NCBI GenBank assembly: GCA_905233945.1
Contig: CAJOFY010000022.1
Span: forward strand, 1,490 to 65,489
DNA: 64,000 nucleotides
Direction of reading: 5' to 3'
DNA from: an uncultured bacterium
GTDB lineage: Bacteria > UBP6 > UBA1177
Below are positions 8,423 to 46,174 of the stretch, one piece after another. Each line of letters starts with the position of its first letter. Within the stretch, counting starts at the first letter, position 1. Position numbers and translations under genes: made by a program. The notes below the pieces were generated by a model. It worked only from the letters and a program-made list of their open reading frames with translations, did not search any database and was not told the origin of the DNA.

Positions 8423-8434
8423 GGGAGATAAAAT

Positions 8435-8974: not shown

Positions 8975-9100
8975 ACGAAGCTCCTGAAAACGAGACGTGT
9001 CAGGTCACGTCTCTACCACAAAAACCGCTGTATTATACTGAATTTTCCTAAAAATGCGAGTCTTTATTTCGTTGTATTTCCGGGAATTATTGCGATTTCG

Positions 9101-9137
9101 TTCAGTTCCCGTCAGTCAAATCGATCACTTGCGGTCT
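9101..9137. repeat. 37-bp direct repeat, copy 1 (TTCAGTTCCCGTCAGTCAAATCGATCACTTGCGGTC); forms the 3' coding end of ORF 9102..9671
   Basis: 34/37 identity with copy at 12681-12717, same orientation. Confidence 0.8.
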
Positions 9138-9671: not shown

Positions 9672-9768
9672 TCGTATTTGTCGTTTGGTTCACAAACTTG
9701 TTCGTAAATTATTTTACAATTAAGTTTGTCATACATCACATATTCTCTGTATTTTTCGTTCATAAAAC

Positions 9769-11153: not shown

Positions 11154-11185
11154 TTATTGTAGGGATTTCGGCTTAAATGGCAAGG

Positions 11186-11302
11186 AAAGCGGATTTTTGC
11201 GCCGCATCAGCACAAATTTTGCGGATTTCCGCAGATTTGAACAAAAAAATTTTGCGGATTTCCGCGGATTTGATCAAAAAAATTTTGCGATTTTCCGCAA
11301 AC
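11186..11302. repeat. 2.6 tandem copies of a 33-34-bp unit (AAATTTTGCGGATTTCCGCRGATTTGAWCAAAAA), each with a GCGG-ATTT-CCGC mini-hairpin
   Basis: Read directly from the divergent intergenic region between the 10476..11153 (-) and 11350..12675 (+) genes. Confidence 0.8.
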
Positions 11303-11349
11303 ATGTTATAAGATGCTGTTTTTGTTAGAAATTTAAAAACGAGGTTTTC

Positions 11350-12675: not shown

Positions 12676-12680
12676 TCTCT

Positions 12681-12717
12681 TTCAGTTCCCGTCAGTCAAA
12701 TCAATTATTTGCGGTCG
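12681..12717. repeat. 37-bp direct repeat, copy 2; on the minus strand encodes …FRPQIIDLTDGN*, a 3' remnant of a paralog of ORF 9102..9671
   Basis: Minus-strand translation of the copy gives an intact C-terminal peptide plus stop but no upstream ORF body. Confidence 0.75.
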
Positions 12718-12792
12718 AAATGGCAAGAAAACTTTATCAACTCCATCCATACAAATTCGGAGTTTTCATATGACTTTTGCAAGTGCTTCGGT

Positions 12793-13370
12793 TTATATCG
12801 CTTCAAGCAGGAAGTAGTGGATTTCCCAGCAGTCGGCGATCTGTTTTTTTTCCCACTTGGTTTTTATGGGTCTGTCGTCGCCGCCGTAAGGAAGACGCTT
12901 GAAAAACGCGCCGGTGAGTGCGATTTCTTTTTCCATAAATTCGGCGTATTCGGGATGGTCGGTCGCGATAAAGAGTTTTCCCCCTTTTTTGAGGCGGTTC
13001 CTGAGCATGATGAGGTTTTCGAAGCGGACCGTCCTGAATTTGTGGTGTTTTTTCTTGGGCCACGGATCGGGAAAGTAGATATGGATCGCGTCAAGCGATG
13101 CGAACGGGACAAGTTCGCGCATCACGGCGATCGCTTCGAAACAGACGATGCGGACGTTATCCTGATTGAGTCTTCTTTTCAGATTCTTTTCTCCGCGCAG
13201 AAAGAATTTGCGGCTGTATTCAATTCCTAAAAAGCCGGTATCGGGCTTTGAATTTGCGTATTCGCTTAAAAAGTGACCGCTGCAGAAACCGATTTCAGCT
13301 TCAACACGCTCTTTGCCGAAAAGTTCAAGGCAAACTTCTCAAGCGGAATCTCTATTTCGGAGCTAATCAT
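12793..13370 (-). CDS. trmB: tRNA (guanine46-N7)-methyltransferase TrmB, apparently frameshifted near 13330-13340
   Basis: Catalytic frame encodes LELFGKERVEAEIGFCSG…YFPDPWPKKKHHKFR. The ATG at 13370 is 2 nt after the hpt stop and opens a different frame (MISSEIEIPLEKFA…) that stops after 34 codons. A 1-nt indel in a T-run (aagTTTgcc) reconciles the two frames. Confidence 0.6.
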
Positions 13371-15044: not shown

Positions 15045-15173
15045 TGCCCCCGGGAAGCAAAAATCCGTACTATTTTAATTGTAGAAAACACTTTGTCAAA
15101 AGAAGTGAAAATATTGCCTCAAAACACAAAAAATGTAAGATTCCGCGTTTTTTTGATTTTTAAGGAGCGGAAA

Positions 15174-16889
15174 ATGGAACTTTTGAGAATCAGGCTCGAA
15201 AAACTTTTAAAAGAAGCTGTAAAAACAATAGAACCAGACTTTGAAGACTGGGGACGGCTCGTTCTTCAGCCTGCGACCGATGAAAAATTCGGCGATTACC
15301 AGACTAATTTCGCGATGACGGCTTCAAAAATATTCAGGCAACCGCCTAAAATAATTGCAGAAAGCATAATTACGGCAATTCCTGCGAACGATATTCTGGA
15401 AAAAGCTGAAGTTGCCGGGCCGGGTTTCATAAACTTCTTTCTGAAAAACAGTTTTGTCGCAGAAACGGTCAGAAAAACATTCAGTGAAAAGTGGGATTTT
15501 TCGCACATAAATACCGAAGGAACTGTTGTTATCGACTACTCTTCGCCCAATATCGCAAAACCGATGCACGTCGGACACCTGCGTACAACAATTATCGGCG
15601 ATAGCATAAAAAGAATAATGAAATTCATTGGTTACAATGTAATTGCCGACAACCATTTAGGCGACTGGGGAACTCAGTTCGGAAAACTTATCGTGGCTTA
15701 CAACAGATGGCTTGATAAAGAAAATTTCGAAAAAGATCCGATCTCGGAACTTGAAAGGCTCTACATAAAATTCGGTGACGAAGCCGAAAAAGACCCTGAC
15801 CTTGACGAACTTGCGAGAGCGGAACTCAAAAAAGTTCAGGACGGCGACGAGGCAAATCTCGCTCTCTGGAAAAAATTTGTCGAGATAACGCTTAGTGAAT
15901 GCAAAAAGATTTACGAATATTTGGGAATAAAATTCGATACTTACTATGGAGAATCGTTCTATCACAAACTTATGCCCAAAGTCATTGACGAGCTTGTCGA
16001 AAAAGGGCTTGCAGTTGAAAGCGAAGGGGCTTTAGTCGTATTTTTTGACGAGAAAGAAAACCTCCATCCATGCATCGTAAGGAAGAAAGACGGCGCGTTT
16101 TTATATGCCACGAGCGATCTCGCCACGATAAAATTCAAATACGAAAACTACAAAATGAACAAGGCGCTCTATGTTACCGACGATCGGCAGGCGGTTCATT
16201 TCAAGCAGATATTCAACATCGCAGAGCGCGCCGGCTGGAAAATGGAATTCGTCCACATCCCGTTCGGAGTCCTCTCCTTCAACGGTGAGATCCTGAAGAC
16301 ACGCGCCGGAAACACGATAAAACTTGCAGACCTTTTCAAAGAGGCTGAAAGCAAGGGTGAGAGCGTCGTTGAAGAGAAAAATCCCGAACTTCCCGAAGAC
16401 GAAAAGAAAAAAATCGCCAAGGCTGTCGGCATCGGAGCTCTCAAATACTCCGACCTTTCCCAGAACAGAACGAGCAACATCGACTTTTCGTGGGAAAAAG
16501 CACTCAGTTTCGACGGTAACACCGCGCCATATCTTCAGTACTCTTACGCAAGGGTCCAGTCGATCAAGCGCAAAGCCGCGGAAAAGGGTATAACTCTTGA
16601 TTTTAATTCGGAAATCAAAATTGAAAGCGATATCGAAAGAAGTATCGCGGCAAGTATCGCGAAATTCCCGGAATGTGTCGAAAAAGCGGCGGAACTCTAC
16701 AAACCCAACTTCATCGCCGATCACATTTTTGATCTGGTTCAGAAATTCGGCACTTTCTACAACTCGACTCCGATCCTCAAAGCGGAACCTGAACAAATGC
16801 AGTCGCGCATTCTTCTTGCCGAAGCAGTTGCACAGACTGTCAGAACCGGCTTGGATCTGCTTGGAATTGAAACGCCGGAGAAAATGTAG
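15174..16889 (+). CDS. argS: arginyl-tRNA synthetase
   Basis: Class I HIGH (PMHVGHLR) and KMSK-like motifs; AGGAG RBS 7 nt upstream of ATG 15174; the longer ORF from 15006 is unlikely. Confidence 0.9.
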   Translation: MELLRIRLEKLLKEAVKTIEPDFEDWGRLVLQPATDEKFGDYQTNFAMTASKIFRQPPKIIAESIITAIPANDILEKAEVAGPGFINFFLKNSFVAETVRKTFSEKWDFSHINTEGTVVIDYSSPNIAKPMHVGHLRTTIIGDSIKRIMKFIGYNVIADNHLGDWGTQFGKLIVAYNRWLDKENFEKDPISELERLYIKFGDEAEKDPDLDELARAELKKVQDGDEANLALWKKFVEITLSECKKIYEYLGIKFDTYYGESFYHKLMPKVIDELVEKGLAVESEGALVVFFDEKENLHPCIVRKKDGAFLYATSDLATIKFKYENYKMNKALYVTDDRQAVHFKQIFNIAERAGWKMEFVHIPFGVLSFNGEILKTRAGNTIKLADLFKEAESKGESVVEEKNPELPEDEKKKIAKAVGIGALKYSDLSQNRTSNIDFSWEKALSFDGNTAPYLQYSYARVQSIKRKAAEKGITLDFNSEIKIESDIERSIAASIAKFPECVEKAAELYKPNFIADHIFDLVQKFGTFYNSTPILKAEPEQMQSRILLAEAVAQTVRTGLDLLGIETPEKM

Positions 16890-16978
16890 TAATTTCAGCA
16901 ATTTGCACATGCAAATCGCTGAAATTAAACAAAAAACTTGATTTTTCAAAAAATATTCGTAGTATGCGTCCGCCTTTC

Positions 16979-17056
<78 letters not shown>

Positions 17057-17088
17057 GCAGTTCTTTGGCTGCCGGATGCTTTGAGTGT

Positions 17089-17165
<77 letters not shown>

Positions 17166-17197
17166 TTTTTGATGTTCTTTTTAATTTGAAGATACGT

Positions 17198-17273
17198 GGT
17201 GGGTGTAGTTCAATGGTAGAGCACCGGATTGTGGATCCGGGCGTTGTGGGTTCGAGCCCCACCTCCCACCCCA
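17198..17273 (+). tRNA. tRNA-His (anticodon GTG) with G-1
   Basis: Extra 5' G pairing with discriminator C; anticodon loop TTGTGGA; GGTTCGAGCCC T-arm. Confidence 0.75.
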
Positions 17274-17286
17274 TTACGCAGAATGT

Positions 17287-17362
17287 GGGCCCTTAGCTCA
17301 GCTGGTAGAGCAACTGACTCTTAATCAGTGGGTCGAAGGTTCGAATCCTTTAGGGCCTACCA
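17287..17362 (+). tRNA. tRNA-Lys (anticodon CTT)
   Basis: GGGCCCTTAGCTCAGCTGGTAGAGC…; anticodon loop CTCTTAA. Confidence 0.8.
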
Positions 17363-17431
17363 TCTTTTTTCTACTTTGAACATCCTCACACAGTTTTTAA
17401 GACTTTTAAAAAAGGATAAAATTCTATCCTT

Positions 17432-17514
17432 GCGAAAGTGGCGGAATTGGCAGACGCACCAGACTTAGGATCTGGCGGGAAACCGTGGGGGTTCGAGTCC
17501 CCCCCTTCGCACCA
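17432..17514 (+). tRNA. tRNA-Leu (anticodon TAG), type II with long variable arm
   Basis: GCGAAAGTGGCGGAATTGGCAGACGC…; anticodon loop CTTAGGA; long extra arm CGGGAAACCGTG. Confidence 0.75.
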
Positions 17515-17569
17515 AGTTGCTATTAAGACTGGGTTTTTAATATAAACAAGTTTTAAACGGAGAAAAAAC

Positions 17570-18871
17570 ATGGATTACAAAATCAATCATCTCAGCACAG
17601 TGGAAAAAGAGATCGAAGTCAGCTTTTCTGCTGAAGAGGTTCAGGCTCAGTTCAAACAGGAATACTCACAGCTTTCACACTCGGTAAACATCAAAGGTTT
17701 CAGGCCGGGCAAAGCTCCGCTCAACGTTCTGAAACAGTTCTACGGCAAAAACGTAAAAGCTGATGTAGAGCATCACTTCATTTCCGAAGGTATGCAGGAA
17801 GCAGTTCTCAAGGAAAAACTCAGACTTGCAACAAATCCCGAGATTTTTGACGAAACTGAACTTACCGAAACCGGCGCTTTCACTTTCAAACTCAAAGCTG
17901 AAGTTTTCCCCGAAATCGACATCGAACTCAAACCTTTCGAGCACGATTTCACTCCGATAAAATACGACGATACCATGCTTGAGAACGAACTTGAAGCAAT
18001 CAAGGCGAAGTTCATAGAATACAAAGAGAGCGAAGACGCGCTTTCGGCTGAAAAAGACAGACTCGTTATCTCCTTCGTCGGAAAAATCGACGGCAAAGAA
18101 GTCGAGAACACAGCTGGAAAAGACGTAACAGTCATTGTCGGTGATGGCAAATTCGTTCCCGATTTTGAGAAAGCGCTTTACGGCCACAAGAAAGGTGATT
18201 CCTTCACTGCCGACGTCAAATTCCCCGAAGATTACAGGTCAAAAGAACTTGCAGGAAAGACAGTTCAGTTCACAATTGACGTGACAAAAGTCGAAAAATG
18301 CGAGAACGCTCCTGAACTTACCGACGAATTCCTTGCAGGAAAAGAAGGTTATCCGGACACTGTTGCAGAACTGAAAGAGCAGATTAAGAAAAATATTGAG
18401 AACTATCTTAACGACATTTCGATGCAGGGCAAAAAGAGCATCGCTATCGAAACTTACGTCAAAGAATACGAGTTCGAAGTTCCGCCGTCATTCATGCTGA
18501 ACGAGAAAAACGCAAGAATCGATGACTACAAAAGAGAGTTTAAGGCTGAAGAAGTTCCTGCTGAAGAGCTTGCAAAGATCGAAGACGACGCAAAATTTGC
18601 AATCAAGAGATACATCATCCTCAACACTCTCGCCGACAAACTTGACATCACCGTAACCGATAAAGATGTTGACATAGCATTTGCACAGGAAGCTATGCAG
18701 TACGGCCTTCCGGCTGAATTTGCGAACAAACTCCGCGAATATGCGGGCGAAGAGAGAATCAATGCAAAGAAATATGAAATAAAAGAGCAGAAAGTTCTCG
18801 ACAAAATGGTTGAAAAGATGATTTTCACCGAAAAAGCTCCTGAAAAAGCTGACGATAAGAAAGCTGAATAA
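17570..18871 (+). CDS. tig: trigger factor
   Basis: 433 aa; N-terminal ribosome-binding GFRPGKAP signature; central PPIase-like and C-terminal domains. Confidence 0.9.
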   Translation: MDYKINHLSTVEKEIEVSFSAEEVQAQFKQEYSQLSHSVNIKGFRPGKAPLNVLKQFYGKNVKADVEHHFISEGMQEAVLKEKLRLATNPEIFDETELTETGAFTFKLKAEVFPEIDIELKPFEHDFTPIKYDDTMLENELEAIKAKFIEYKESEDALSAEKDRLVISFVGKIDGKEVENTAGKDVTVIVGDGKFVPDFEKALYGHKKGDSFTADVKFPEDYRSKELAGKTVQFTIDVTKVEKCENAPELTDEFLAGKEGYPDTVAELKEQIKKNIENYLNDISMQGKKSIAIETYVKEYEFEVPPSFMLNEKNARIDDYKREFKAEEVPAEELAKIEDDAKFAIKRYIILNTLADKLDITVTDKDVDIAFAQEAMQYGLPAEFANKLREYAGEERINAKKYEIKEQKVLDKMVEKMIFTEKAPEKADDKKAE

Positions 18872-20469: not shown

Positions 20470-20545
20470 GGGTCGGTAGCTCAGATGGAAGAGCATCTGA
20501 CTTTTAATCAGGGGGTCGCGGGTCCGAGTCCCGCCCGACCCACCA
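20470..20545 (+). tRNA. tRNA-Lys (anticodon TTT)
   Basis: GGGTCGGTAGCTCAGATGG…; anticodon loop CTTTTAA; CCA encoded. Confidence 0.8.
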
Positions 20546-20565
20546 TTCGCTCTCACTTTTTTGGT

Positions 20566-20640
20566 GACCTTTTCGTCTAGTGGTTAGGACATCGGCCTTT
20601 CACGCCGGTAACGGGGGTTCGAGTCCCCCAAAGGTCGCCA
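20566..20640 (+). tRNA. tRNA-Glu (anticodon TTC)
   Basis: GACCTTTTCGTCTAGTGGTTAGGAC…; anticodon loop CTTTCAC; architecture parallels E. coli tRNA-Glu. Confidence 0.75.
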
Positions 20641-22038: not shown

Positions 22039-24210
22039 ATGACCGAACTCGTTTTTCTGTGGCATATGCACCAGCCTTTTTACAAAGACTGCATCAGAAA
22101 CAAATATCTGATGCCGTGGGTCAGGCTTCATGCGCTGAAAGGCTACTACGATCTTCCCCTCGCGATGGAAAAATACGGTGTCCGCGGAGTCGTCAACGTT
22201 GTTCCGTCACTTATTGAGCAGCTCAAAGACTACGCCGAGAACAGCGTTTCTGATGCATGGCTCGAGCATACTCTTCTTGATCCCGCCGAAATGAAAGAGG
22301 AACAGAAAGCGTTTGTCGTAAAAAACTTTTTCATGCTGAACTGGGACAGATTGGTCAGAACTTCACCGCGTTACAACGAGCTCTTGGGCAAAAGGCTCCG
22401 TTACGAAAAAAAGCTTGACTGGGTAGAAACTGCGAAACTTTTTTCGGATGAAGAAATTCTTGATCTTCAGGTGCTTTTCAACCTGAAATGGTTCGGTTTC
22501 ATGGCAAGAGAGAAGTTCGAAAAACTTGTCGAACTTGACAGAAAAGACTGCGGTTTCACGAAGAACGACAAAGAGGATCTGCTTGAAATCCAGCGGAAAG
22601 TCCTGCGCGAGATAATTCCGCTTTACAGGCGTCTTGCCGAAGAAAAAGTGATTGAAATTTCCTTCACCCCTTTCTATCACCCGATTTTTCCGCTCGTTTA
22701 CGATACCGACATCGCGAAAAGATGCATGGATTCTCCGCTTCCTGCAAAATATTCTTATCCCGAGGATGCAAAATGGCACCTTGAAGAGGGAAAACGTTAC
22801 AGCGAGGAAACATGGGGAAAAAATATCGATGGAATGTGGCCGGCTGAAGGTTCCGTATCGCCTGAAATAATCGAAGCCGCTGCAAATGCAGGGGTAAAAT
22901 GGCTCGCGACTGACGAAACGATACTTATGAAATCGCTCGGAAATTCCGACAAGGCAAAAGTGCTTTACACGCCTTATCTTCTGAAATCGGAGAAAAATCA
23001 GAGCGTTGCCGCTTTTTTCCGTGACAAATATCTTTCCGATCTGCTGGGATTCTCGTTTTCGCAGATGAAGCCGGAACAGGCTGCCGATATTTTTGTAAAC
23101 TATGTGAAAAACGCGGCGGCGAATTTTCACGGCAGCAGAGAAGCTGTCGTTTCAGTCATTATGGACGGCGAGAACGCATGGGAATCTTATCCTGACAACG
23201 GCGAGCATTTCTTAAAAGAGCTCTTTACAAGACTGAAAAACGATTCAGAAATAAAAACGACAACTTTCGGTGATATAGTTTCGCGGGGAACGGACAAATT
23301 TCCTATTGTTGACAATTTATATTCCGGTTCGTGGATCAACGGAAACTACGAAATTTGGATCGGAAACGAAGAGGACAATTCGGCATGGGGTTATCTCAAG
23401 CGTGTCCGCGATTTCTATACGAAATACAGCCTTAACCACGTTGTCGAGCCGCAGATTCACAATGAAGTCATGCGATGCTTCTACCGTGCTGAGGGAAGCG
23501 ACTGGTTCTGGTGGTACGGTCCGCAGTTTTCAACTGAAAACGACTGGCTTTTCGACCGTCTTTTCAGGCGGCACCTGCGCAGAGTCTACAATCTGCTCGG
23601 GATGAACTACCCGACATTCCTTGATATTCCTATTTCGTCAAATTCGGAAACAAGCCTTTTTGTAGATCCGACGACCGAGATAAACCCGATAATTTCGGGC
23701 AGAAATAACGGCTATTACGAATGGGCCGGAGCGGGATTTTTCGAAAATTCGCGGAAAGCGGGCGGCGCGATGTACAATTCGATAAAACTTGTTGACAAAA
23801 TTCTTTACGGATTCAACCGCGAAAAACTGTTTTTCAGAATCCAGCTTACGAATCCGATGCATTTCTACGAACACAAAAAATACTTTATCAAAGGATTTTT
23901 GATGGATCACCAGAACATCGATTTTGCCCTTCCGATGGTCCGTATCGAAAAAACGCCTTTCCTTATCCACTGCAGCAACGAATCCGGCAGAGTCGCGGAT
24001 ATGGTCGGTGCAGGCGAGGCCGCTTTCGACGAAGTGATGGAATTTTCGCTTTATTCCAAAAAAATCGGTCTCAAAGCGGGCGAAAAAGCGAAAGTCTACT
24101 TCAAAATCCTCTCAAACGAAGGAATCGAACTCGAAAGAATCCCCGGAAACGGTTCTATTGAAGTAACTGTTCCCGATGATGCAGCCCTTTTCAAACTCTG
24201 GGACGTGTAG
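22039..24210 (+). CDS. glycoside hydrolase family 57 alpha-glucan enzyme (amylase/branching/glucanotransferase type)
   Basis: N-terminal WHMHQPFY GH57 signature; 723 aa; RBS overlaps the glgC stop. Confidence 0.75.
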   Translation: MTELVFLWHMHQPFYKDCIRNKYLMPWVRLHALKGYYDLPLAMEKYGVRGVVNVVPSLIEQLKDYAENSVSDAWLEHTLLDPAEMKEEQKAFVVKNFFMLNWDRLVRTSPRYNELLGKRLRYEKKLDWVETAKLFSDEEILDLQVLFNLKWFGFMAREKFEKLVELDRKDCGFTKNDKEDLLEIQRKVLREIIPLYRRLAEEKVIEISFTPFYHPIFPLVYDTDIAKRCMDSPLPAKYSYPEDAKWHLEEGKRYSEETWGKNIDGMWPAEGSVSPEIIEAAANAGVKWLATDETILMKSLGNSDKAKVLYTPYLLKSEKNQSVAAFFRDKYLSDLLGFSFSQMKPEQAADIFVNYVKNAAANFHGSREAVVSVIMDGENAWESYPDNGEHFLKELFTRLKNDSEIKTTTFGDIVSRGTDKFPIVDNLYSGSWINGNYEIWIGNEEDNSAWGYLKRVRDFYTKYSLNHVVEPQIHNEVMRCFYRAEGSDWFWWYGPQFSTENDWLFDRLFRRHLRRVYNLLGMNYPTFLDIPISSNSETSLFVDPTTEINPIISGRNNGYYEWAGAGFFENSRKAGGAMYNSIKLVDKILYGFNREKLFFRIQLTNPMHFYEHKKYFIKGFLMDHQNIDFALPMVRIEKTPFLIHCSNESGRVADMVGAGEAAFDEVMEFSLYSKKIGLKAGEKAKVYFKILSNEGIELERIPGNGSIEVTVPDDAALFKLWDV

Positions 24211-24217
24211 GAGAGAT

Positions 24218-25390
24218 ATGGAACTTAGAAACAAACTTGAAAAGAATTTTCTGAAATTCCCTTTTGAGCTTTTTGATGCGATTTTTTCGCAGAAAAGTTT
24301 CATCGACATAGAAAGGCTTAATGTCCACGACAGGGAATCTGGGCTTCTTTTCATAAAAAATTACGGCTACGACATAACTGATCCTGAGATTGCGGAGACG
24401 GTTTCATCGATTCTTAGCGAGGCCAAAACTTTTATTCAGAGCTATCTTTCGGAAGATCCAGAGGGAAAAACGGAAACTTTGATAATTCCGCCCGATATTC
24501 TGTGCGACGACGATATAGTGAGTCTTCTGATAAAGGCTTCGGAAAAGGAAAAAACGCTTGAGCAGGCCTGGGCATGCGCTGTTCTCCGGGTTGCCCACAC
24601 GATAACGCATGTCGAAAACGACCTCGCGAAAAGTTTTATGCCGGGGATCAGAAACCAGATTTACAAACGGTTCAGCTCGCACTTGAACGGCAACGCTGCG
24701 GGAGGATATTTTCTCGGAACCGGTGATGACGCAATAAAACTTAAACTTTTCGAGATAAAGAACGACAAGTCGCGTGACAGCCTGATTCTGAAACTTCTCC
24801 ACAAAAAGGAGAATGTCACTGCCGACATTTTCGACCGCGTCGGAGTCAGGATCGTAACCTATACAAAACTCGACATCATCCTTGTCCTCAGGTATTTCGC
24901 GACGAACCATGTCATTTCGTTCGCCAACATCAAGCCGAGCAGGACGAAAAACAACGTCGTCAACATTCCGCGTTTCATCGAAGGCGTCGAAGAACTGAAA
25001 TCGCACGACCTTTCGTCGTGGTCACAGGAAGACGTTGCCGAATTTCTTGAAAAATATCTCGAGATTCCGCCCGAGGAAAAGGAGGAAATTACAAAAAGAA
25101 ACATTGAGGAGACAAACCTCTATTCTTCGACTTCATACTCTTCGATCCAGCTTACGAGCCGACTTCTCATAACTATGGAAGATCCGATAAATCCTGCAAA
25201 ACCGACTTACCGCTTTTTCTTCCCTTTCGAAGTACAGATTCTGGACGAGGAGAGTTTTATCGAAAGCCGCTCGGGACGCGCAAACCATGAAGAATACAAG
25301 AAAAATCAGCTCGTAGCCGCGAGAAAGCGCGTTTTGACAAATGTTCTACGCTATCAGAGACAGCATCCATGGGAAACGGAAATAAAATAA
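24218..25390 (+). CDS. RelA/SpoT-domain nucleotidyltransferase-like protein with ~200-aa N-terminal extension
   Basis: Motifs resembling the (p)ppGpp synthetase fold: DIFDRVGVRIV (cf. DhxGxRhh), SYSSIQLT (cf. GYRSLH), FEVQILDEE (cf. EVQIRT); AGGAGAG RBS before ATG 24218. Confidence 0.45.
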   Translation: MELRNKLEKNFLKFPFELFDAIFSQKSFIDIERLNVHDRESGLLFIKNYGYDITDPEIAETVSSILSEAKTFIQSYLSEDPEGKTETLIIPPDILCDDDIVSLLIKASEKEKTLEQAWACAVLRVAHTITHVENDLAKSFMPGIRNQIYKRFSSHLNGNAAGGYFLGTGDDAIKLKLFEIKNDKSRDSLILKLLHKKENVTADIFDRVGVRIVTYTKLDIILVLRYFATNHVISFANIKPSRTKNNVVNIPRFIEGVEELKSHDLSSWSQEDVAEFLEKYLEIPPEEKEEITKRNIEETNLYSSTSYSSIQLTSRLLITMEDPINPAKPTYRFFFPFEVQILDEESFIESRSGRANHEEYKKNQLVAARKRVLTNVLRYQRQHPWETEIK

Positions 25391-36695: not shown

Positions 36696-36778
36696 CGCGT
36701 AAAAACTTCTGAAGTAACAAAAAAATCGGAAACAATTTTTTTTCTGCTAAAATATGCCGCTTTTTAAAGGAGGATCTC

Positions 36779-37624
36779 ATGGTTAAATTCATCGGCGCCC
36801 ACATTTCGGCGGCGGGCGGAGTCGAAAACGCTCCGAAAAACGCGGCTGAAATCAACGCTACGGCTTTCGCTCTCTTCACGAAAAATCAGAAACAGTGGTT
36901 CGCTCCGGCGCTTTCCGCTGCTTCAATCGAGGCTTTCAAAGAAAAATGTGCTGAACTTCATTTTGCCGCACATGCGATCCTTCCGCATGACAGCTATCTC
37001 ATAAATCTCGGGCATCCGGCTGATGAAGGGCTTCAGAAATCACGGAATTCCTTTACTGACGAGATGAAACGCTGCGAAATTTTAGGGCTCGACAGGCTCA
37101 ACTTTCACCCCGGAAGCCATCTTCGTGAAATCACCGAAAGCGAGTGCCTTTCAAAAATCGCAGAATCGATAAATATCGCGCTCGATAAGACAAAAGGGGT
37201 CACCGCAGTCATCGAAAACACGGCGGGACAAGGCTCAAATGTAGGATACAGATTTGAACATCTTGCCGAAATTATTGACAAAATTGAAGATAAATCGCGA
37301 GTCGGGATCTGCATCGACACCTGCCACGCCTTTGCCGCGGGATACGACCTTACGACACCTGTTGCCTGTGAAAAAACTTTCAGCGAACTCGATAAAACTG
37401 TGGGACTCAAATATCTTCGCGGAATGCACTTCAACGATGCGAAAAAAATGCTCGGAAGCAAGGTCGACAGGCATGAAACTCTCGGTAACGGCGCGATCGG
37501 AATAGAGTGCTTCAAATGGCTCGTTGAACAGCCTTTCACCGACAATATTCCGTTGATTTTAGAGACTCCGGAGCCCGAAAAGTGGCCGAAGGAAATAGAA
37601 CTGCTCAAAAGTTTTGTAAAATAG
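36779..37624 (+). CDS. nfo: endonuclease IV (AP endonuclease)
   Basis: [12 protein letters not shown]-terminus; TIM-barrel AP endonuclease 2 metal-ligand pattern. Confidence 0.85.
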
Positions 37625-37632
37625 GAGGCCAA

Positions 37633-39231
37633 ATGAAACTTCTTGTAACGATCCTTTCGCGTCAGACAGTCGTTCAGGCGTCGCTTATCCGCGAAGCTGC
37701 TCCCGATGTCATAATTTTTGTCTCGACCGTGATGGCGCAGGAGAACGACTGGCACAAAAACATTCCGGTTTTAGTAAAGCGCGCTGACGGCGAAGACATT
37801 AAGTATATTAATGTTTTTATTGAAAAAAATATGAATCTGGGTGAAATCATCGAGATGCTCAAAAGGCGTGTCAGAAGCGTTTTCGATGAATACGGGATCA
37901 CCGAGATCTACTGCGACGCCTCCTGCGGAAAAGGGATCCACAGGATCGTTTTCGCCGAGTATCTCAAGCGTTTTTCCGAAAAGCAGGACCTCGGTTTTTT
38001 CCTCGTCTATTTCGATCTCGATACGCGTCAGATCAATAAAATCGCGATAAAGGAGCAGTCTTTCCACGAATACAAATCCTCGGTTTCGATCGACTGGCAC
38101 TTGAAGGAGCGTCTTACCCTTTACGGAGCTGAACTTACTGATTTTCTTACGATTTATGACGGAAAAACGAATTATTTCGCAGAAAACGGAGAGCAGTTTG
38201 AGGAACTTTACACAAACCTCTGCAACTCCATGAATCTGCGGGCTTTTTTCTCGTCCTACGACAACATGAAAACGATCATCGACCTCAAAGGGGAACTTCA
38301 CGATTTCATGGTGAAAAACTTCCGCGACGAGCAGATCGACAAGTTTTTGCAGAGGATTTTCGGCGTAATGCCGCACCTTCGCCCCGAAATAAACGAAGCT
38401 AAAAACGAAATCAGGGTAAAACTTACCGATTTCTTTAACGAAATGAGCCACAGAAGAGAACTTCAGACTTTTTCTGATTCTTTTGATTTCAGGACGACTC
38501 TCGCAAGCTGTCAGAAAAAGTTCAACGCCGAAATGCCGGATGCAGTCATAAGAAAGATCCTTCCGCTCGCCGGAGAAGTCGACAAAGCCGACCTCAGAAG
38601 CGATGTCCAGCACTTTTTAGATGTTCTTTTTTCCAAAATTTCGGAAAAAACGAACTCTCTCGCCGATGTCAAAAGCATAGATGTCACTGCGGCCGTTTTC
38701 AACCGCTTCAAACAGAAATATGTGAAAGAAATCGAGCGCGAAAGCACCCTCAACACACGCTCGCAAATATCTGTGATCTTTGAAAAAATCATAAGTTACG
38801 CCGTGTGCCGCGCAATGGAGAAGTATCCGCTTCTGAAAGAGTCGATCGCATCGGTTTTCCAGAACGTGAAACTGAGCGGAAAAGCAAGTTCGCTCATTGA
38901 AATCGACACGCTCGTCGTCTTCAAAAACGGATACCTCCACATCCTTGAGGCAAAAAGCTCGCATGTTTCCAACAAAGACCTCAATTCGCGGATCTTAGTC
39001 ATGAAAAAATATCTCGGAGAAAGCGTAGGAATGGATATCGTCTTCCCCTTCACGGCGCACGACATCCGGATGTTCATGGAAAAAAACGATCCCTTTATCC
39101 GCAAATTCTACAGCAAAGGCTTGAAATCGGCGGCAGGCTGGGGCACATTCTTCGCTACAACTGACAAAACAGTCACCCCGATCGACAGGATCGCCGAAAG
39201 GCTCCGCGACCTCGCGATGATGTACAGCTGA
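37633..39231 (+). CDS. Card1/Can2-like protein: N-terminal CARF-like Rossmann domain fused to a C-terminal PD-(D/E)xK (restriction-endonuclease-like) nuclease domain
   Basis: N-terminus LLVTILSRQT… (beta1 plus S/Q loop) and DASCGKG motif at ~aa 110, consistent with CARF. C-terminus …IEID-x14-LEAK… (D…ExK), the same Asp-to-Glu spacing I recall for Card1's catalytic D/E/K. AGGAGG RBS 4 nt before ATG; 8 nt after the nfo stop. Confidence 0.5.
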   Translation: MKLLVTILSRQTVVQASLIREAAPDVIIFVSTVMAQENDWHKNIPVLVKRADGEDIKYINVFIEKNMNLGEIIEMLKRRVRSVFDEYGITEIYCDASCGKGIHRIVFAEYLKRFSEKQDLGFFLVYFDLDTRQINKIAIKEQSFHEYKSSVSIDWHLKERLTLYGAELTDFLTIYDGKTNYFAENGEQFEELYTNLCNSMNLRAFFSSYDNMKTIIDLKGELHDFMVKNFRDEQIDKFLQRIFGVMPHLRPEINEAKNEIRVKLTDFFNEMSHRRELQTFSDSFDFRTTLASCQKKFNAEMPDAVIRKILPLAGEVDKADLRSDVQHFLDVLFSKISEKTNSLADVKSIDVTAAVFNRFKQKYVKEIERESTLNTRSQISVIFEKIISYAVCRAMEKYPLLKESIASVFQNVKLSGKASSLIEIDTLVVFKNGYLHILEAKSSHVSNKDLNSRILVMKKYLGESVGMDIVFPFTAHDIRMFMEKNDPFIRKFYSKGLKSAAGWGTFFATTDKTVTPIDRIAERLRDLAMMYS

Positions 39232-41970: not shown

Positions 41971-42118
41971 TACCACGGAACCGAGATAAGTCCGGAAAAA
42001 CCCATGAATGCAAGTGAGAGAAGACATGCTGTGACGAGCGCAGTCGCCTTGCCTCAAAACCATTCCCCGGAAATCCCGTTGCAGGCTTTTTTCAAGAGTT
42101 CAATGCCGGATTTTTACT
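41971..42118 (-). pseudogene. diverged duplicate of the rnfA 3' end (encodes …ALVTACLLSLAFMGFSGLISVPW* on the minus strand) plus shared downstream sequence
   Basis: Minus-strand translation matches the RnfA C-terminus (…[25 protein letters not shown]) with an in-frame stop just upstream; ~85% nt identity to the authentic 46502-46580. Confidence 0.75.
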
Positions 42119-42719
42119 GTTTTTTCCCGATCTCGCGGACTTTCCCAATGATTTCATTGATTTTGTCAAGCGTCATATCCGCGATACTGTTTTCTTCCGC
42201 GGTTTTCCTCATGTTTTCAACTGCGGAAACTACATTGTCATATTGAATGTATATTTTTTCCAGCAATTTTATATCACAGCATCTTTGTTTTATTCTGATT
42301 TCGTAATCTGCGAGTTCGCTGTCATCAGAAAACAGCAATTCCCTAAGTAAATTAGCAGTTTTTTGTATTTGAATCGTGTCGCTGCGGATAGCTTTGTATT
42401 GATTCTGCAAAAGACGACGGTATTTGTCATCGCCGATTTTCTCTATTTCAATAAGGATTAAAGCCGAATCTGTTACCGGAATCATATTGCTAAAATTGAT
42501 CGCTCCATACAAACCGGCAGATATTTTCCTGAAATCAATAGTATTTTTCATAGTTTTGTGCTTTGGCTTGGGTGAAGAGAACGGCGCATAATATTTAACA
42601 GAACCTATTTCAAGAACGATTCCGACATAAGGTCTTGTTTCGTGCTTGTTGTCGGCGACTTTAGCGTCATATTTCCTAAGAAAGTCTATGTAATCGTCTT
42701 TCACATGATAGAATCTCAT
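42114..42719 (-). CDS. ToxN/AbiQ-family endoribonuclease toxin (type III toxin-antitoxin)
   Basis: 201 aa; N-terminus MRFYHVKDDYIDFLRKYDAKV…YVGIVLEIGSVKYYAPFSSPKPKH closely parallels ToxN (MKFYTISSKYIEYLKEFDDKV…FIGIVLEIQGHKYLAPLTSPK). Confidence 0.8.
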   Translation of the reverse strand: MRFYHVKDDYIDFLRKYDAKVADNKHETRPYVGIVLEIGSVKYYAPFSSPKPKHKTMKNTIDFRKISAGLYGAINFSNMIPVTDSALILIEIEKIGDDKYRRLLQNQYKAIRSDTIQIQKTANLLRELLFSDDSELADYEIRIKQRCCDIKLLEKIYIQYDNVVSAVENMRKTAEENSIADMTLDKINEIIGKVREIGKKQ

Positions 42720-42765: not shown

Positions 42766-42900
42766 GTCCTCTGTTGTGGTCGAGGCTCACCGCTTTTTTA
42801 AGATTTCACTTAATGGTAGAAACTCACCGCTTTTTTCGGTTTCCAATTAAGGTCGGAACTTACCTGCGTCAAAAACTTTAGTCACTTTTTATTTAAAGTC
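42766..42900 (-). ncRNA. candidate ToxI-like antitoxin RNA: ~2.5 tandem 37-nt repeats (plus-strand units CTCACCGCTTTTTT-N23 at 42786-42822 and 42823-42859, partial unit 42766-42785)
   Basis: Direct tandem repeats immediately upstream (minus strand) of toxN and separated from it by a terminator; canonical type III TA arrangement. Confidence 0.65.
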
Positions 42901-43192: not shown

Positions 43193-43621
43193 TTAAATGA
43201 AGACCTTCTCTATTTCTTCGAAGTTTTCATGTTTATATTTTTCAAACTCTTTCCTAAGACGGCTCTCTTTGGAAATATACAAATATTGGTTATTACTCTG
43301 TTTCCTCTTTCTGTAAACTGTTTGTTTCTGAGCTTTCAGCTGCCGTTCGACATCCCGCTTTGTTAAAAACAAATAAGCGGGTTCACTATCTTTTGTTTCA
43401 AGCACCTCTATCACAAAAAAATCGTTCTTGTCTTTAATCACTATAGAATTGTTTATGCTACGATTATCCATAGTTACAATATTTACTTGGATCCTTTTCA
43501 GTTTGTTTTCAGGCATAATCACAAGAATTTCGCGTTCTTTTCTGGTGGTACACGCAGAATAAAAAACTTCTCCACAACTGCTTAAGCCCTTAAGTATCAA
43601 TTTATAATTATTTTTTGACAT
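43193..43621 (-). CDS. hypothetical basic protein (142 aa) encoded downstream of the rSAM maturase
   Basis: GGAGAA RBS before ATG 43621; Lys/Arg-rich C-terminal half; no confident family assignment (weak, unconvincing GIY-YIG-like spacing). Confidence 0.4.
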   Translation of the reverse strand: MSKNNYKLILKGLSSCGEVFYSACTTRKEREILVIMPENKLKRIQVNIVTMDNRSINNSIVIKDKNDFFVIEVLETKDSEPAYLFLTKRDVERQLKAQKQTVYRKRKQSNNQYLYISKESRLRKEFEKYKHENFEEIEKVFI

Positions 43622-43651
43622 ATTTTTCTCCACTACAATTGATAAGAATTT

Positions 43652-44923
43652 TCAAACTGAGAGATTGGCTCTCTCTTCCAACTCACGAAGAGCCATTTCT
43701 TTTGTAAAATTACACAATTCAGCAAAATCTTTATCCGAGTAGGCAAGCTTATTACTGCAGCATTGGCTGTTGCAGTGATACTTCATAAAACAAGTTTCGC
43801 ATTCCTTAACCCTTTTTCTCTCATATAAATCACTAATACTTTTCATTTTATTTTCATCTACTAGCACAGCGTCGTTGCTTACGACACCATATTTCAACTG
43901 TTCAAATGCCAGAGCTCTGTTGTTGGAATTCCTGTGGCATGCGACAATGTCTCCTGACGGAGTAACACAAAATTCTCCACCACAAAAACGATTCCTGATA
44001 GATTGCAATGAATTTATTACGGAATTTCTCAAATAAATATTTTTGGTTTTTGCAACAGCCTTGGCTTTAAAAAAATAATTCATAAAATCATGATAATAAT
44101 TTTCCCATGTCAATCCTGGCATAGACACAAGTTCTAAATGAATTTTTCTGATTTTCGGATAATTTTCCGATACATACTCAACCATTTCCGGCATTTTTTC
44201 TACAGCTGTCTGCGTAATTGTAGTTCTAAAACCGAAATCAACTCCATTTTCAGCTAATAAGTCTATTGAATTTTTCACATCAACAAAACTTCCTTTTCCG
44301 GAAGGATAAGGGCGTTGTATGTTTTGAATTTCAGGGAGAATGTCGAAAGAACATCCAATATGAACCTGATTTTTCACAAGCCACTGTATTCGTTCAGCAT
44401 TCAGCAAAGTCGTGTTGGTCGTCAAACTTATACTTACTTTTTGATCTTTCTGCAGTTTTCTTATGTATTCAACAGCCCAAACAAACAACTCCCATTTTAC
44501 ACAAGGTTCTCCGCCGCCGATAAAAGAAAAATGCTTGCCTTTTGTTCTGCTGCTAAAAATAAAATCTATCGTGTTTTTCAGTTTATCTTTTGTCAGAGTC
44601 TCTGCAGAATGTTGTTCATGCGCATAACAATAAGTGCAAGCAAGATTACAAGCCTCCGTCAATATAAATACCGTATGTCTTTTCTTCATGCCGAATCCGT
44701 AATATTTATGGACTGTTGCATCTTGAGTTGACATAAGATCTGAAATTCTCTCATCCAAATCTGTATCGCAGCATCCACCATTTTTGAAAGATTTTTCTAT
44801 TTCGACAGCCTCGACATCTTTTGTGTAAAAAAGCCGCCTTTTCAACGGAGCATAAACTATATGCGTATTTTTTAAATGAGACTCCAACAAAAAAATTTCA
44901 TCCCCAAGACTCAGATATTTCAT
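43652..44923 (-). CDS. radical SAM / SPASM-domain peptide maturase with probable N-terminal RRE-like region
   Basis: CNLACTYCYA CxxxCxxC; GGGEP; C-terminal auxiliary-cluster cysteines (CGGEFCVTPSGDIVAC…CETCFMKYHCNSQCC) typical of SPASM/twitch RiPP maturases. Confidence 0.75.
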   Translation of the reverse strand: MKYLSLGDEIFLLESHLKNTHIVYAPLKRRLFYTKDVEAVEIEKSFKNGGCCDTDLDERISDLMSTQDATVHKYYGFGMKKRHTVFILTEACNLACTYCYAHEQHSAETLTKDKLKNTIDFIFSSRTKGKHFSFIGGGEPCVKWELFVWAVEYIRKLQKDQKVSISLTTNTTLLNAERIQWLVKNQVHIGCSFDILPEIQNIQRPYPSGKGSFVDVKNSIDLLAENGVDFGFRTTITQTAVEKMPEMVEYVSENYPKIRKIHLELVSMPGLTWENYYHDFMNYFFKAKAVAKTKNIYLRNSVINSLQSIRNRFCGGEFCVTPSGDIVACHRNSNNRALAFEQLKYGVVSNDAVLVDENKMKSISDLYERKRVKECETCFMKYHCNSQCCSNKLAYSDKDFAELCNFTKEMALRELEERANLSV

Positions 44924-44949
44924 CTGAAATTTTTCCTCACCCTAAATCA

Positions 44950-45129
44950 TTAATCAAAGCAATCATTATCATTGCAGTGATAATCCATACCGCAACCATT
45001 ATCATCACAGTCAAACGAACAAACATCGCATTTGTCATCACACATACAATCACACCAATCAACATTGCAAAAGTTGGAATTTTTGCTTGCACTCGCTTCT
45101 TCCAAACTGATCAAATCTGAAATAATCAT
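44950..45129 (-). CDS. candidate RiPP precursor peptide: 20-aa leader plus 39-aa core with 10 Cys and 13 Asp (CNVDWCDCMCDDKCDVCSFDCDDNGCGMDYHCNDNDCFD)
   Basis: GGAGAG RBS 6 nt before ATG 45129; 26 nt upstream of the rSAM-SPASM gene; recurring Cys-x(1-3)-Asp spacing as in freyrasin-type ranthipeptides. Confidence 0.6.
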   Translation of the reverse strand: MIISDLISLEEASASKNSNFCNVDWCDCMCDDKCDVCSFDCDDNGCGMDYHCNDNDCFD

Positions 45130-45352
45130 TTTTCTCTCCACGAAAAAATTAATAAAAAATACTATCTGAAACGGGACTCCCGAAACAGTCTTTTTTGAAA
45201 AATCATAATAACTTACCCCCCTCCCGACTACGGAAACGCAGGATTCCGGCAATATTTTAACGTTTTATTTACTATTAGTCAACACAATATTTACCAATAG
45301 TCAAAAAATATTTTCTGTATGTGCTATATTGAAAAAAGGAGGTGGTTTGAGT

Positions 45353-45664
45353 ATGGATGGCAAAACACTTGGCAAGCGGGTGAAAGCATTAAGGCGTAAA
45401 GCCGGAATAACGCAGCTTGATCTCGCGTGCCGGGTAAATATCAGCGAAAGCTACATCGCGTTGATAGAAGCCGACAAACGAAAACCTGGAATGGATATAA
45501 TCTCTACTTTGGCAAACGAATTTCATGTCTCTGTTGACTATCTTTTAAGCGGCAAAATATCAGAAGAAGACAACCTCATGCTCAAAGAATGGACATCTCT
45601 TATAAAGGAAAGACCTCTTAAAATCGTCCGCACTTTTTTTGAATGTGTGGACAGCAAAAAATAA
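45353..45664 (+). CDS. XRE-family helix-turn-helix transcriptional regulator
   Basis: HTH_3 signature (ITQLDLACRVNISESYIALIE); divergent from the precursor peptide gene; AGGAGG RBS. Confidence 0.75.
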   Translation: MDGKTLGKRVKALRRKAGITQLDLACRVNISESYIALIEADKRKPGMDIISTLANEFHVSVDYLLSGKISEEDNLMLKEWTSLIKERPLKIVRTFFECVDSKK

Positions 45665-45715
45665 TTTTCATTTTTGCGATCGGATTTTCGACCGCAGAAA
45701 CTCGCGTTTTTTGCC

Positions 45716-45753
45716 GTTTAAAGCGGTAGATTTTGTGATTTTGTAAAAAGTCT
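45716..45753. repeat. islet boundary repeat, copy d (truncated)
   Basis: GTTTAAAGCGGTAGATTTTGTGATTTTGTAAAAAGTCT; abuts the 3' end of the PIN gene. Confidence 0.75.
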
Positions 45754-45760
45754 GGAGATA

Positions 45761-46174
45761 TCAAAGTTTTTTCAGTGCTTCATCAACGCTGATTGCCGGA
45801 ATTTTAGAGTTTTTGAAATCTTTGAGATTTTCGGTAACGATGTAATCAAGATCGGCGTTCTCGGCACATTTCATCTGTAATCCGTCTTCGAGATCGAAAA
45901 AATCAGGATCGTTAAGAACTTCAAAAAAATCTTCCTGATATTCAGCAATTACTTGAAAGTTTGAAACTATCAAAAGTAAAAACTCTCTTCTGTCTGCAAC
46001 CGAAAAAAACTTTCTCGTGATATAAAAAATATCTGTCAGCGAGTGTGCGGAAACAAAACCGTTAAGTTTTTTGGCAAGACACTTTTTTACAAGCAGCGAA
46101 GCTTTCTCGTGAAACGGATTATTCGGCGTGAGATAATAAAGAATAATATTCGTATCAACAAAGATATTCTTCAT
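45761..46174 (-). CDS. PIN-domain (VapC-like) toxin
   Basis: 137 aa; N-terminal IFVDTNI with conserved acidic PIN residues; 4-bp overlap with upstream antitoxin gene. Confidence 0.7.
   Translation of the reverse strand: MKNIFVDTNIILYYLTPNNPFHEKASLLVKKCLAKKLNGFVSAHSLTDIFYITRKFFSVADRREFLLLIVSNFQVIAEYQEDFFEVLNDPDFFDLEDGLQMKCAENADLDYIVTENLKDFKNSKIPAISVDEALKKL

Follow-up and report, generated by a model that had tools for sequence, protein, structure and literature searches.

A stand-alone Can2/Card1-like CARF nuclease paired with nfo in an uncultured UBP6 bacterium

A gene at positions 37633 to 39231 of a 64,000-nucleotide (nt) stretch of DNA from an uncultured bacterium of the UBP6 lineage (assembly GCA_905233945.1, contig CAJOFY010000022.1; the whole 64-kb stretch analysed is called the window below) encodes a 532-amino-acid (aa) protein in which a CARF domain at the N terminus is joined to a PD-(D/E)xK nuclease domain at the C terminus. 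Judging by fold and sequence profile, it is a homolog of Can2 and Card1 that is divergent enough to miss curated models, and it belongs to a small, uncurated and unnamed long-form subfamily of CARF-helical-PD-(D/E)xK proteins. On balance, we lean towards the view that it is a ligand-gated, dimeric nuclease of the Can2/Card1 type, probably answering to cyclic tetra-adenylate (cA4) or a related cyclic oligoadenylate from an unlinked type III CRISPR system or another cyclase of the Cas10-palm type. CARF effectors are normally seen as subordinate to the Cas10 cyclase of a type III system, and the orphan that has been studied, VC1899, looks like a dead relic. Orphan CARF proteins are already documented, every CARF family having members unlinked to CRISPR (Makarova et al. 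2014, PMC4012209), and a stand-alone Can2-like gene is therefore unsurprising in itself. What is new is a long-form subfamily that is found in type III loci yet missed by Pfam and NCBIfam models, an orphan branch of it that is non-degenerate, strongly conserved, vertically inherited and non-mobile, and an apparently fixed translational coupling to nfo in a rumen sub-branch.

Fold, catalytic residues and ligand pocket

The open reading frame (ORF) runs from 37582 to 39231 (+), and the ATG at 37633, which gives a 532-aa product beginning MKLLVTIL, is the start matched by 15/15 full-length homologs in alignment. An AlphaFold2 model built on 16 sequences (mean predicted local distance difference test score, pLDDT, 80.8) shows an alpha/beta domain at residues 1-150, where pLDDT is 83-94, a beta hairpin at ~165-180, an all-helical region at 186-400 and, ahead of further helices, an alpha/beta core at 405-470. 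Foldseek comparison of this model with the Protein Data Bank (PDB) placed Can2, VC1899, Card1 and Cdn1 in the top 18 positions (E 5e-11 to 3e-6), with Csm6, Csx1, Can1 and Cam1 next. An earlier note, made from the letters of the window alone, had proposed a Card1/Can2-like CARF-PD-(D/E)xK nuclease and a superposition on those structures, and had allowed that the N-terminal domain might instead fall into another Rossmann family; the proposal is borne out by the fold matches, by profile searches and by the aligned catalytic residues, and the N-terminal domain proves to be CARF both by fold and by profile.

Among 1.84 billion cluster representatives, a profile search found only 75 relatives at E<1e-3. 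Two profiles were used, one for the clade of the window's protein (A1) and one for the wider family, made from 58 of the 75 relatives (A2). Searches of PDB sequences with the single protein and with A1 returned nothing relevant, and Can2 and Card1 were reached only by A2, which matched Can2 at 8e-15, Cdn1 at 9e-11, Card1 at 4e-10 and VC1899 at 7e-10 over both domains, with the nuclease motifs in register; for the CARF domain of Can2 the domain independent E-value was 2.8e-9. The PADLOC model CARF4--CARF_PDDEXK matched the protein at 1e-8, and a weak match to Pfam NERD (E=0.035, residues 402-442) is compatible with a PD-(D/E)xK core. An NCBIfam scan of the protein gave nothing meaningful, and weak Pfam matches to ComFB, UCH, TPR_Trm732_C and ATG8 were taken as noise. 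The gene and its parts are as follows.

37633..39231, + strand: coding sequence of the CARF-helical-PD-(D/E)xK nuclease, 532 aa, from the ORF and the homolog start; stop codon 39229-39231
37633..38082, + strand: CARF domain, residues 1-150 (AlphaFold2 model, Foldseek, A2 profile)
37915..37944, + strand: loop D95-A-S-C/S-G-K-G-I-H-R, which follows strand 4 and corresponds to the N-(I/V)-T-G-G-T-K motif of Card1/Can2, the Lys being displaced one position
38083..38757, + strand: linker with a small beta hairpin and the all-helical insert, residues 151-375 (AlphaFold2 secondary structure)
38758..39228, + strand: PD-(D/E)xK nuclease domain, residues 376-532 (AlphaFold2 model, Foldseek, A2 profile, weak NERD match)
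38782..38787, + strand: E384-K385 in the first core helix (F-E motif), invariant in the clade, aligned with WFEE of Card1 and WFEH of Can2
38899..38907, + strand: E423-I-D425, predicted catalytic acidic pair, invariant, aligned with E-L-D of Card1 and E276/D278 of Can2 (PMC7969007)
38947..38955, + strand: E439-A-K441, ExK motif, invariant in the clade, aligned with E-C-K of Card1 and Can2

Residues E384, E423, D425, E439 and K441 lie in register with the motifs of Card1, Can2 and VC1899 and are invariant down to 35% identity in the clade, and so the conservation expected of the C-terminal D/E/K residues in orthologs was found. In a superfamily alignment of 58 sequences, E384 and K441 are nearly invariant and E423-x-D425 is invariant; the counterpart of D425 in Card1 is the Asp of the D294N mutant entry 6xl1. 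The D-x14-ExK spacing given in the earlier note does equal that of Card1, but the offset of 14 positions leaves 13 residues between the two, and the notation is off by one.

Can2 and Card1 (SthCan2 7BDV, TbrCan2 8Q3Y, Card1 6WXW; DUF1887) have the same order of domains, an N-terminal CARF followed by a C-terminal PD-(D/E)xK, and are the best matches by fold and by profile: the FE, ExD and ExK motifs are in register, the D-to-E spacing is identical, and the Ser, Thr and Tyr that contact cA4 are kept. Unlike them, the window's protein, at 9-14% identity, falls below Pfam thresholds, carries a helical module of ~120 extra aa, reads S-S/C-G-K-G where they read T-G-G-T-K, with the Lys shifted one position, and is encoded by a gene that shows no linkage to type III CRISPR-Cas and is probably co-transcribed with nfo. 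Significant fold or profile matches were also obtained with Can1 (6SCE) and Cdn1 (8Z4I/9U49), CARF-gated effectors of the same structural class; Can1 is a monomeric PD-(D/E)xK nuclease that carries two CARF domains as well as a nuclease-like domain that is degenerate, and Cdn1 is described as a CRISPR-associated ribonuclease of ~400 aa activated by several cyclic oligoadenylate (cAn) species (PMC12825302).

The long-form subfamily is defined by traits that are all found in the window's protein: a length of ~510-610 aa, the helical module, a conserved Trp that follows strand 2, and the loop D-x-(T/S)-(T/S)-G-x-G. A1 aligns as one stretch to the relatives P0024-P0031 (E 1e-42 to 2.5e-29). Among these, P0025, P0026, P0030 and P0031 (529-574 aa) share the same three-part architecture, the alignment running unbroken over residues ~2-526. 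At ~19-23% identity to the CRISPR-linked long forms, the window's protein shares with them W40, the FE, ExD and ExK motifs and the loop D-x-(T/S)-(T/S)-G-x-G; its first pocket region reads S-R-Q-T-V-V-Q and theirs S-(R/G)-D-x-I-V-L.

The helical module is smaller and less peculiar than it first seemed. From the YG motif to the FE motif there are 219 aa in this protein and 101 aa in Card1, and the net excess is therefore ~120 aa, not the insertion of ~250 aa given by the earlier note; the whole inter-domain region is ~225 aa. Nor does it set this gene apart, since it is a trait of the entire long-form subfamily, CRISPR-linked members included, and is present in distant relatives of 529-609 aa to which A1 aligns without a break over residues 2-526. 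Modelled alone (pLDDT 78), the insert found no fold relative in the PDB, the best match (E 0.25) lying among generic coiled coils and helical bundles. Two natural short forms inside the window's clade, P0019 (408 aa) and P0020 (410 aa), from loci L019 and L045 and represented on several contigs, show a clean deletion of residues ~218-340 with all CARF and nuclease motifs kept and an ExK motif that reads E-T-K, not E-A-K. Because these forms lose the core of the module, it appears to be accessory and dispensable within the long-form subfamily.

In the CARF domain, residues S9, R10, Q11, T12, Q15, T32, W40, D95-R104 and Y126-R132 were assigned to the pocket by mapping onto the cA4 contacts of Can2 in a sequence alignment. 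The contacts common to Can1 and Can2 are Ser19, Thr42, Lys99 and Tyr118 of Can2 (PMC7969007). In a MAFFT alignment with PDB sequences, S19, T42 and Y118 correspond to S9, T32 and Y126, so that 3/4 contacts are kept, position 9 being S, A or T across the clade. The first pocket loop is S-R-Q-T, compared with S-E-Q-T in Card1 and T-G-Q-T in Cdn1. In the loop that starts at D95, 8/10 residues never vary within the clade, A96 is almost as constant and position 98 is Cys or Ser; the same loop in the CRISPR-linked relatives is D-C-T-T-G-x-G-(I/L)-(F/Y)-(R/H). Invariant positions of the CARF domain are concentrated in the four pocket loops (18/34 positions, vs 12/116 elsewhere; Fisher p=5e-7). With 18/30 of the invariant positions in these loops, the pocket is the most constrained part of the sensor domain, which is the opposite of what is seen in VC1899.

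The comparison with VC1899 (Vibrio cholerae, 1XMX) bears directly on the state of the pocket. This orphan of the Can2 family is not activated by cA4, has weak cA4-independent activity, and was proposed to have been 'cast adrift' from a lost CRISPR system; its pocket is acidic and hydrophobic, with Asp, Asp, Arg and Val at the four conserved contacts in a structural comparison (PMC7969007), and our MAFFT alignment places D/G/R/V at the four contact positions. Unlike VC1899, the window's protein keeps the Ser, Thr and Tyr with a Lys nearby, and the pocket loops are the best conserved part of its CARF domain; a degenerate pocket of the VC1899 type was not found, the predicted pocket being polar/basic and constrained. 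VC1899 is also a short form (~385 aa), compared with 532 aa here.

Pairing with nfo and inheritance of the gene

The nuclease gene is the second member of a conserved pair, which comprises the following elements.

36716..36778, + strand: upstream region of nfo, conserved along with the pair; rich in A/T and containing a TAAAAT box and a AAAGGAGG ribosome-binding site
36779..37624, + strand: nfo, encoding deoxyribonuclease IV (apurinic/apyrimidinic endonuclease), 281 aa, first gene of the pair (profile matches)
37624..37628, + strand: GGAGG Shine-Dalgarno sequence that overlaps the nfo stop codon, 4 nt 5' of the ATG of the nuclease gene

The nfo product scores 478.7 bits against the NCBIfam equivalog NF002199 (cut-off 315) and matches TIGR00587 (2e-106) and Pfam AP_endonuc_2 (2e-61). 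The nuclease gene follows it directly after a gap of 8 nt, as had been noted, and its Shine-Dalgarno sequence overlaps the nfo stop, an arrangement that indicates translational coupling of the two genes; at other loci the spacing is 8-9 nt or the genes overlap. A terminator-like site was looked for in the gap and none was seen. The 36716..36778 segment is likely to be the promoter and leader of the nfo-nuclease unit itself, a function we deduce from sequence; a consensus scan of the segment did not call a full sigma-70 site. On the other side, a convergent gene of the TIGR03960 type (B12/radical-SAM) ends 4 nt past the stop codon of the nuclease gene.

Every related locus is homologous to the window, at the nucleotide level, from 36716-36720, inside the lysS-nfo spacer, up to ~39232, and the conserved unit is therefore nfo and the nuclease gene with ~60 nt of their own upstream sequence. 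nfo lies directly 5' of the nuclease gene at 23/23 loci where that gene has at least 61% identity and upstream sequence is present, and the pair is kept across at least 5 different outer contexts. Thus the nfo-adjacent position is conserved among close relatives, as the earlier note had suggested checking, but not beyond them, members at or below 57% identity having other neighbours. The wider operon with glyQS-lysS-nfo that had been proposed did not hold up: glyQ, glyS or lysS stands beside the pair at 0 of ~45 related loci, the arrangement is specific to this genome, and we have rejected it as a conserved unit. An 8-nt gap and a shared promoter would hold any selected downstream gene in place, and adjacency to nfo therefore means co-expression, not necessarily a shared function.

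The sharp breaks of homology at both borders raised the idea that nfo and the nuclease gene form a mobile cassette. In two loci of the closest genomes, L003 and L036, argS, tRNA genes and tig lie directly 5' of nfo in inverted orientation, their counterpart in the window being 15112-18868, and the comparison fits a single ~21.6-kb inversion of window positions 15112-36715 with one breakpoint at the lysS/nfo junction. Among the other related loci, most share synteny with each other, and the window falls outside it. The cassette idea was rejected because most loci are mutually syntenic, because the difference from L003 and L036 fits a simple inversion, and because there were no viral, plasmid or phage matches, a search of IMG/VR, PLSDB and INPHARED having found no relatives.

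The clade is sharply bounded, with scores of at least 748 bits inside and at most 163 bits to everything else, except for a 132-aa N-terminal fragment (P0023). It is found in ~19 species-representative genomes, which are UBP6 or unclassified metagenome-assembled genomes (MAGs) from rumen and gut and a few sediment MAGs labelled Sumerlaeota or Spirochaetales, and on 13 metagenome contigs. The number of uncultured UBP6-type genomes from rumen and sediment that carry it is put at ~25. Gene order divides it into three sub-branches. In the first (61-98% identity; rumen), nfo precedes the nuclease gene; in the second (51-57%), the gene stands between a divergent gene for a methyl-accepting chemotaxis protein, a chemoreceptor, and a convergent thyX at most loci examined; in the third (35-37%), it follows a Peptidase_S15 gene. 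These contexts are stable and housekeeping in character in all three, and the marks of a mobile defence island (patchy occurrence, carriage on phages, plasmids or islands, defence genes as neighbours) were not found.

The gene is under strong purifying selection. The median ratio of nonsynonymous to synonymous substitution rates (dN/dS) is 0.08 over 66 pairs, with ranges of 0.03-0.12 for the CARF domain, 0.04-0.13 for the insert and 0.005-0.08 for the nuclease domain, and the reading frames are intact at all loci examined.

Genes of DNA-precursor metabolism recur in the vicinity of clade members: thyX lies convergent and directly downstream at L002, L046 and L047, nrdD lies 4-8 kb upstream at L001 and L046, and a thymidine/pyrimidine-nucleoside phosphorylase gene lies two genes downstream of the homolog at L029. 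This recurrence could be chance or inherited synteny.

CRISPR linkage of the relatives and the source of the signal

Distant long-form relatives are found in type III CRISPR-Cas loci in 4/5 informative contexts; those of P0027 and P0038 were uninformative, the contigs being short or ending near the gene. The genes for P0025, P0026, P0030 and P0031 adjoin Cas10-palm and RAMP genes, variously with Cas6, Cas1 or a reverse transcriptase-Cas1 fusion (RT-Cas1), and Cas2, and there is a 44-repeat array beside P0031 and a 7-repeat array beside P0030. The fifth context, that of P0024, lies two genes from a gene for a CARF(Cas_APE2256)-GGDEF protein (L023 2913-3803, two genes downstream of P0024; split into two called genes at L024 2840-3798). 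No cas genes were found in 12 kb around the CARF-GGDEF gene, which may be a CRISPR-independent cyclic-nucleotide module.

Two RNA-polymerase-like genes were seen near these effectors. At L031 2451-5639, a 1062-aa single-subunit RNA_pol (PF00940) is encoded directly downstream of the effector, and at L023 8245-11466, ~6 kb downstream of the effector, there is a gene for a 1073-aa protein with weak Rpb2/Rpb1 domain matches. Both are unusual companions for a CRISPR ancillary nuclease.

We propose that one branch of a subfamily of type III ancillary effectors left its CRISPR locus long ago in a UBP6-type lineage, that the gene would then have been inherited vertically as an ordinary chromosomal gene, and that in the rumen sub-branch it may have become translationally coupled to nfo. 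By analogy with Can2 and Card1, the protein would dimerise through its CARF domains. A ligand resembling a cyclic oligoadenylate, most likely cA4, would enter the pocket formed by S9/R10/Q11/T12, T32, the G99-K100-G101/H103/R104 loop and Y126, and its binding would reposition the two nuclease domains, the site composed of E384/E423/D425/E439/K441 then cutting DNA and/or RNA. The ligand could come from an unlinked type III system, from a mini-cyclase of the Cas10-palm or GGDEF type elsewhere in the genome, or be a different nucleotide altogether. A type III system elsewhere in the genome is the most likely of these, and a mundane source of the signal. The minimal Cas10-palm cyclases of the mCpol/Panoptes type, described as CRISPR-independent mini-Cas10 cyclases (PMC12657218, PMC12657230), would be another possible source of cyclic oligonucleotides outside CRISPR; the link to them is hypothetical, and no gene for such a cyclase was found in the window or in the orphan-clade DNA examined.

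Several observations weigh against this proposal. The first concern the assignment itself. Pfam CARF_Card1 (PF23400) matches residues 4-142 only below threshold (E=3e-4, 21.2 bits vs a gathering score of 24.6), reaching E<1e-3 in only 6/58 of the wider relatives, and the Card1/DUF1887 endonuclease model does not match the protein; of the profile searches suggested in the earlier note, the one with the Pfam CARF model thus fell short of the threshold and the one with the Card1 endonuclease model gave no match. The alignment behind the AlphaFold2 model is shallow, and the placement of the window's clade as one branch nested among the CRISPR-linked long forms comes from a neighbour-joining tree without support values.

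A second set of observations concerns the missing partner. Association with type III CRISPR-Cas, a trait of the Can2/Card1 family, was found neither in the window nor in the ~45 related loci. As the earlier note had stated, neither cas genes nor CRISPR arrays occur in the 64 kb, and cyclase genes are absent too: when 44 ORFs were screened with PADLOC and the window was annotated, genes for cas proteins, Cas10, GGDEF proteins and CD-NTases all failed to appear, and the search for arrays came up empty. The same is true of the ~45 related loci with 10-kb flanks (~720 kb, redundant), in which no cas gene, cyclase or CRISPR array was detected. A tblastn search of 460 kb of orphan-clade DNA with 22 cas, cyclase and accessory proteins gave no match, a weak test for such fast-diverging proteins. 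A k-mer scan for arrays found none in 721 kb; among the comparison loci it detected the arrays of L027, L028 and L031 and found none in the other three, L023, L025 and L032.

The pocket and the mode of inheritance supply the remainder. The phosphate-contacting Lys99 of Can2 aligns with Gly101, the invariant Lys100 standing just before it in the sequence alignment; Gly occupies the Lys99 position in CRISPR-linked long forms too, and thus characterises the subfamily as a whole. Compared with those CRISPR-linked forms, the clade has fixed the pocket changes D->Q11, Q/R->K100, F/Y->H103 and C->F127, and these clade-specific substitutions could reflect an altered ligand. Finally, unlike the usual patchy, locus-linked defence effectors, the gene persists throughout a deep clade (35-98% identity) among housekeeping surroundings, and it evolves about as slowly as nfo, for which dN/dS is ~0.06.

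The last of these features lead to the alternative that we take most seriously, while regarding it as unlikely: a domesticated housekeeping nuclease whose CARF domain has come to sense a nucleotide signal unconnected with CRISPR, for example a nucleotide or oligonucleotide derived from damage or stress, and which acts with Nfo in DNA repair or in nucleic-acid quality control. The case for it starts from nfo, which adjoins the gene at all 23 loci at or above 61% identity despite the changes of outer context and the sharp breakpoints at the borders of the pair, and is probably coupled to it translationally; yet the linkage is confined to one sub-branch, the members at or below 57% identity having other neighbours, and an 8-nt gap with a shared promoter is no proof of a shared function. 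Cleavage by PD-(D/E)xK enzymes leaves 3'-OH ends, and Nfo is not needed to process them. Inheritance of the gene is vertical and clade-wide, it is absent from the viral, plasmid and phage collections, and its dN/dS is similar to that of nfo, all of which would suit a domesticated function. So would the DNA-precursor neighbours in other sub-branches (thyX, NrdD, pyrimidine-nucleoside phosphorylase), although thyX is convergent and hence not co-transcribed with the nuclease gene. The fixed substitutions in the pocket also point this way, but the substituted pocket still resembles those of cA4 binders, S-R-Q-T comparing well with Card1 S-E-Q-T and Cdn1 T-G-Q-T, and T32 and Y126 being kept.

There is a precedent for such a recruitment in RtcR, whose CARF domain is described as controlling an RNA-repair operon, RtcBA, outside CRISPR (PMC7790460, PMC9650030). 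This domain answers to signals of RNA damage. The likeness lies in the CARF fold: unlike the window's protein, RtcR is a sigma-54 transcription activator and not a nuclease, and its CARF domain mostly lacks a basic residue after strand 4 (PMC4012209). We consider it doubtful that a CARF nuclease of CRISPR ancillary origin has been domesticated for good across the whole lineage, so that it would no longer depend on Cas10 but answer another endogenous or infection-derived nucleotide and work with Nfo, under regulation, on damaged DNA or in nucleic-acid quality control, or would serve as a stand-alone sensor of foreign cyclic oligonucleotides. If either were true, it would be the second RtcR-like recruitment of a CARF domain to housekeeping and the first with a CARF-nuclease. 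Whichever reading prevails, either signalling by an unlinked type III system or mini-cyclase is stable across a lineage, or a CARF nuclease has gained a CRISPR-independent signal.

It is improbable, in our view, that the nuclease is ligand-independent, with the CARF domain serving as a dimerisation scaffold only and the enzyme being constitutive or regulated by expression. A signal generator was not found nearby, the canonical Lys position is Gly, and VC1899 offers an example of weak cA4-independent activity (PMC7969007). However, the conserved positions of the CARF domain cluster in the pocket loops (p=5e-7) and are not spread over the fold, the polar and basic pocket residues are invariant over 35-98% identity, and a constitutive, non-specific nuclease of the Can2 type would be toxic. 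That the gene is a decaying relic of a lost CRISPR system, functionless now, is very improbable: its orphan status and the fate proposed for VC1899 (PMC7969007) would suggest as much, but dN/dS is low in all three regions, the frames are intact, the catalytic and pocket residues are invariant, the gene is retained throughout a deep clade and the degenerate pocket of VC1899 is absent, so that the selection analysis effectively refutes this reading.

Other features of the window

Annotation covered almost every ORF of 150 aa or more in the window. These ORFs include genes for an ABC1 kinase, ArgRS, trigger factor, GlgC, a GH57 enzyme, proteins of the beta-lactamase fold, NadB, a PilZ protein, GlyQS, LysS, the Rnf complex, hydrolases and sugar enzymes, and there are two small islets of low GC content. 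The features that follow lie outside the nfo-nuclease unit.

11214-11299: 33-nt x2.6 tandem repeat just upstream of the AAA_14/DUF4143 gene
11350-12675, + strand: AAA_14/DUF4143 ATPase, matching the PADLOC candidate defence family PDC-S01 (2e-94)
16978-17511 and 20470-20637: tRNA gene clusters of five and two genes that flank the trigger-factor region
24176-25390, + strand: member of family TIGR04552 (1.5e-95), of unknown function; a weak signal below threshold resembles RelA_SpoT nucleotidyltransferases (4.7e-4)
42114-42719, - strand: ToxN/AbiQ toxin of a type III toxin-antitoxin system (Pfam ToxN_toxin 8e-50; PADLOC AbiQ 7e-41)
42777-42850: 37-nt x2 tandem repeat just upstream of the ToxN start, likely a ToxI-like antitoxin RNA
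43652-44923, - strand: radical-SAM/SPASM peptide maturase, best match a PapB-type ranthipeptide maturase (6e-40, below cut-off)
44950-45252, - strand: Cys-rich 100-aa ORF of a cluster resembling those for ribosomally synthesised and post-translationally modified peptides (RiPPs)
45266-45313: 22-nt x2.2 repeat
45329-45664, + strand: XRE-type helix-turn-helix gene
45761-46174, - strand: PIN-domain gene

The toxin gene and the RiPP-like cluster form an islet ~3 kb downstream of the nuclease gene that is not conserved with it. The cluster itself, which includes an unknown 146-aa ORF, occupies a low-GC segment at 43193-46174 (GC 0.36-0.38). A further low-GC block at 5615-13230 carries family-less ORFs of 935, 189, 236 and 225 aa on the - strand, after which comes the AAA_14/DUF4143 gene. 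The TIGR04552-family gene directly follows glgC and the GH57 gene, and at L029 a homolog of it lies ~8 kb from the nfo-nuclease pair.

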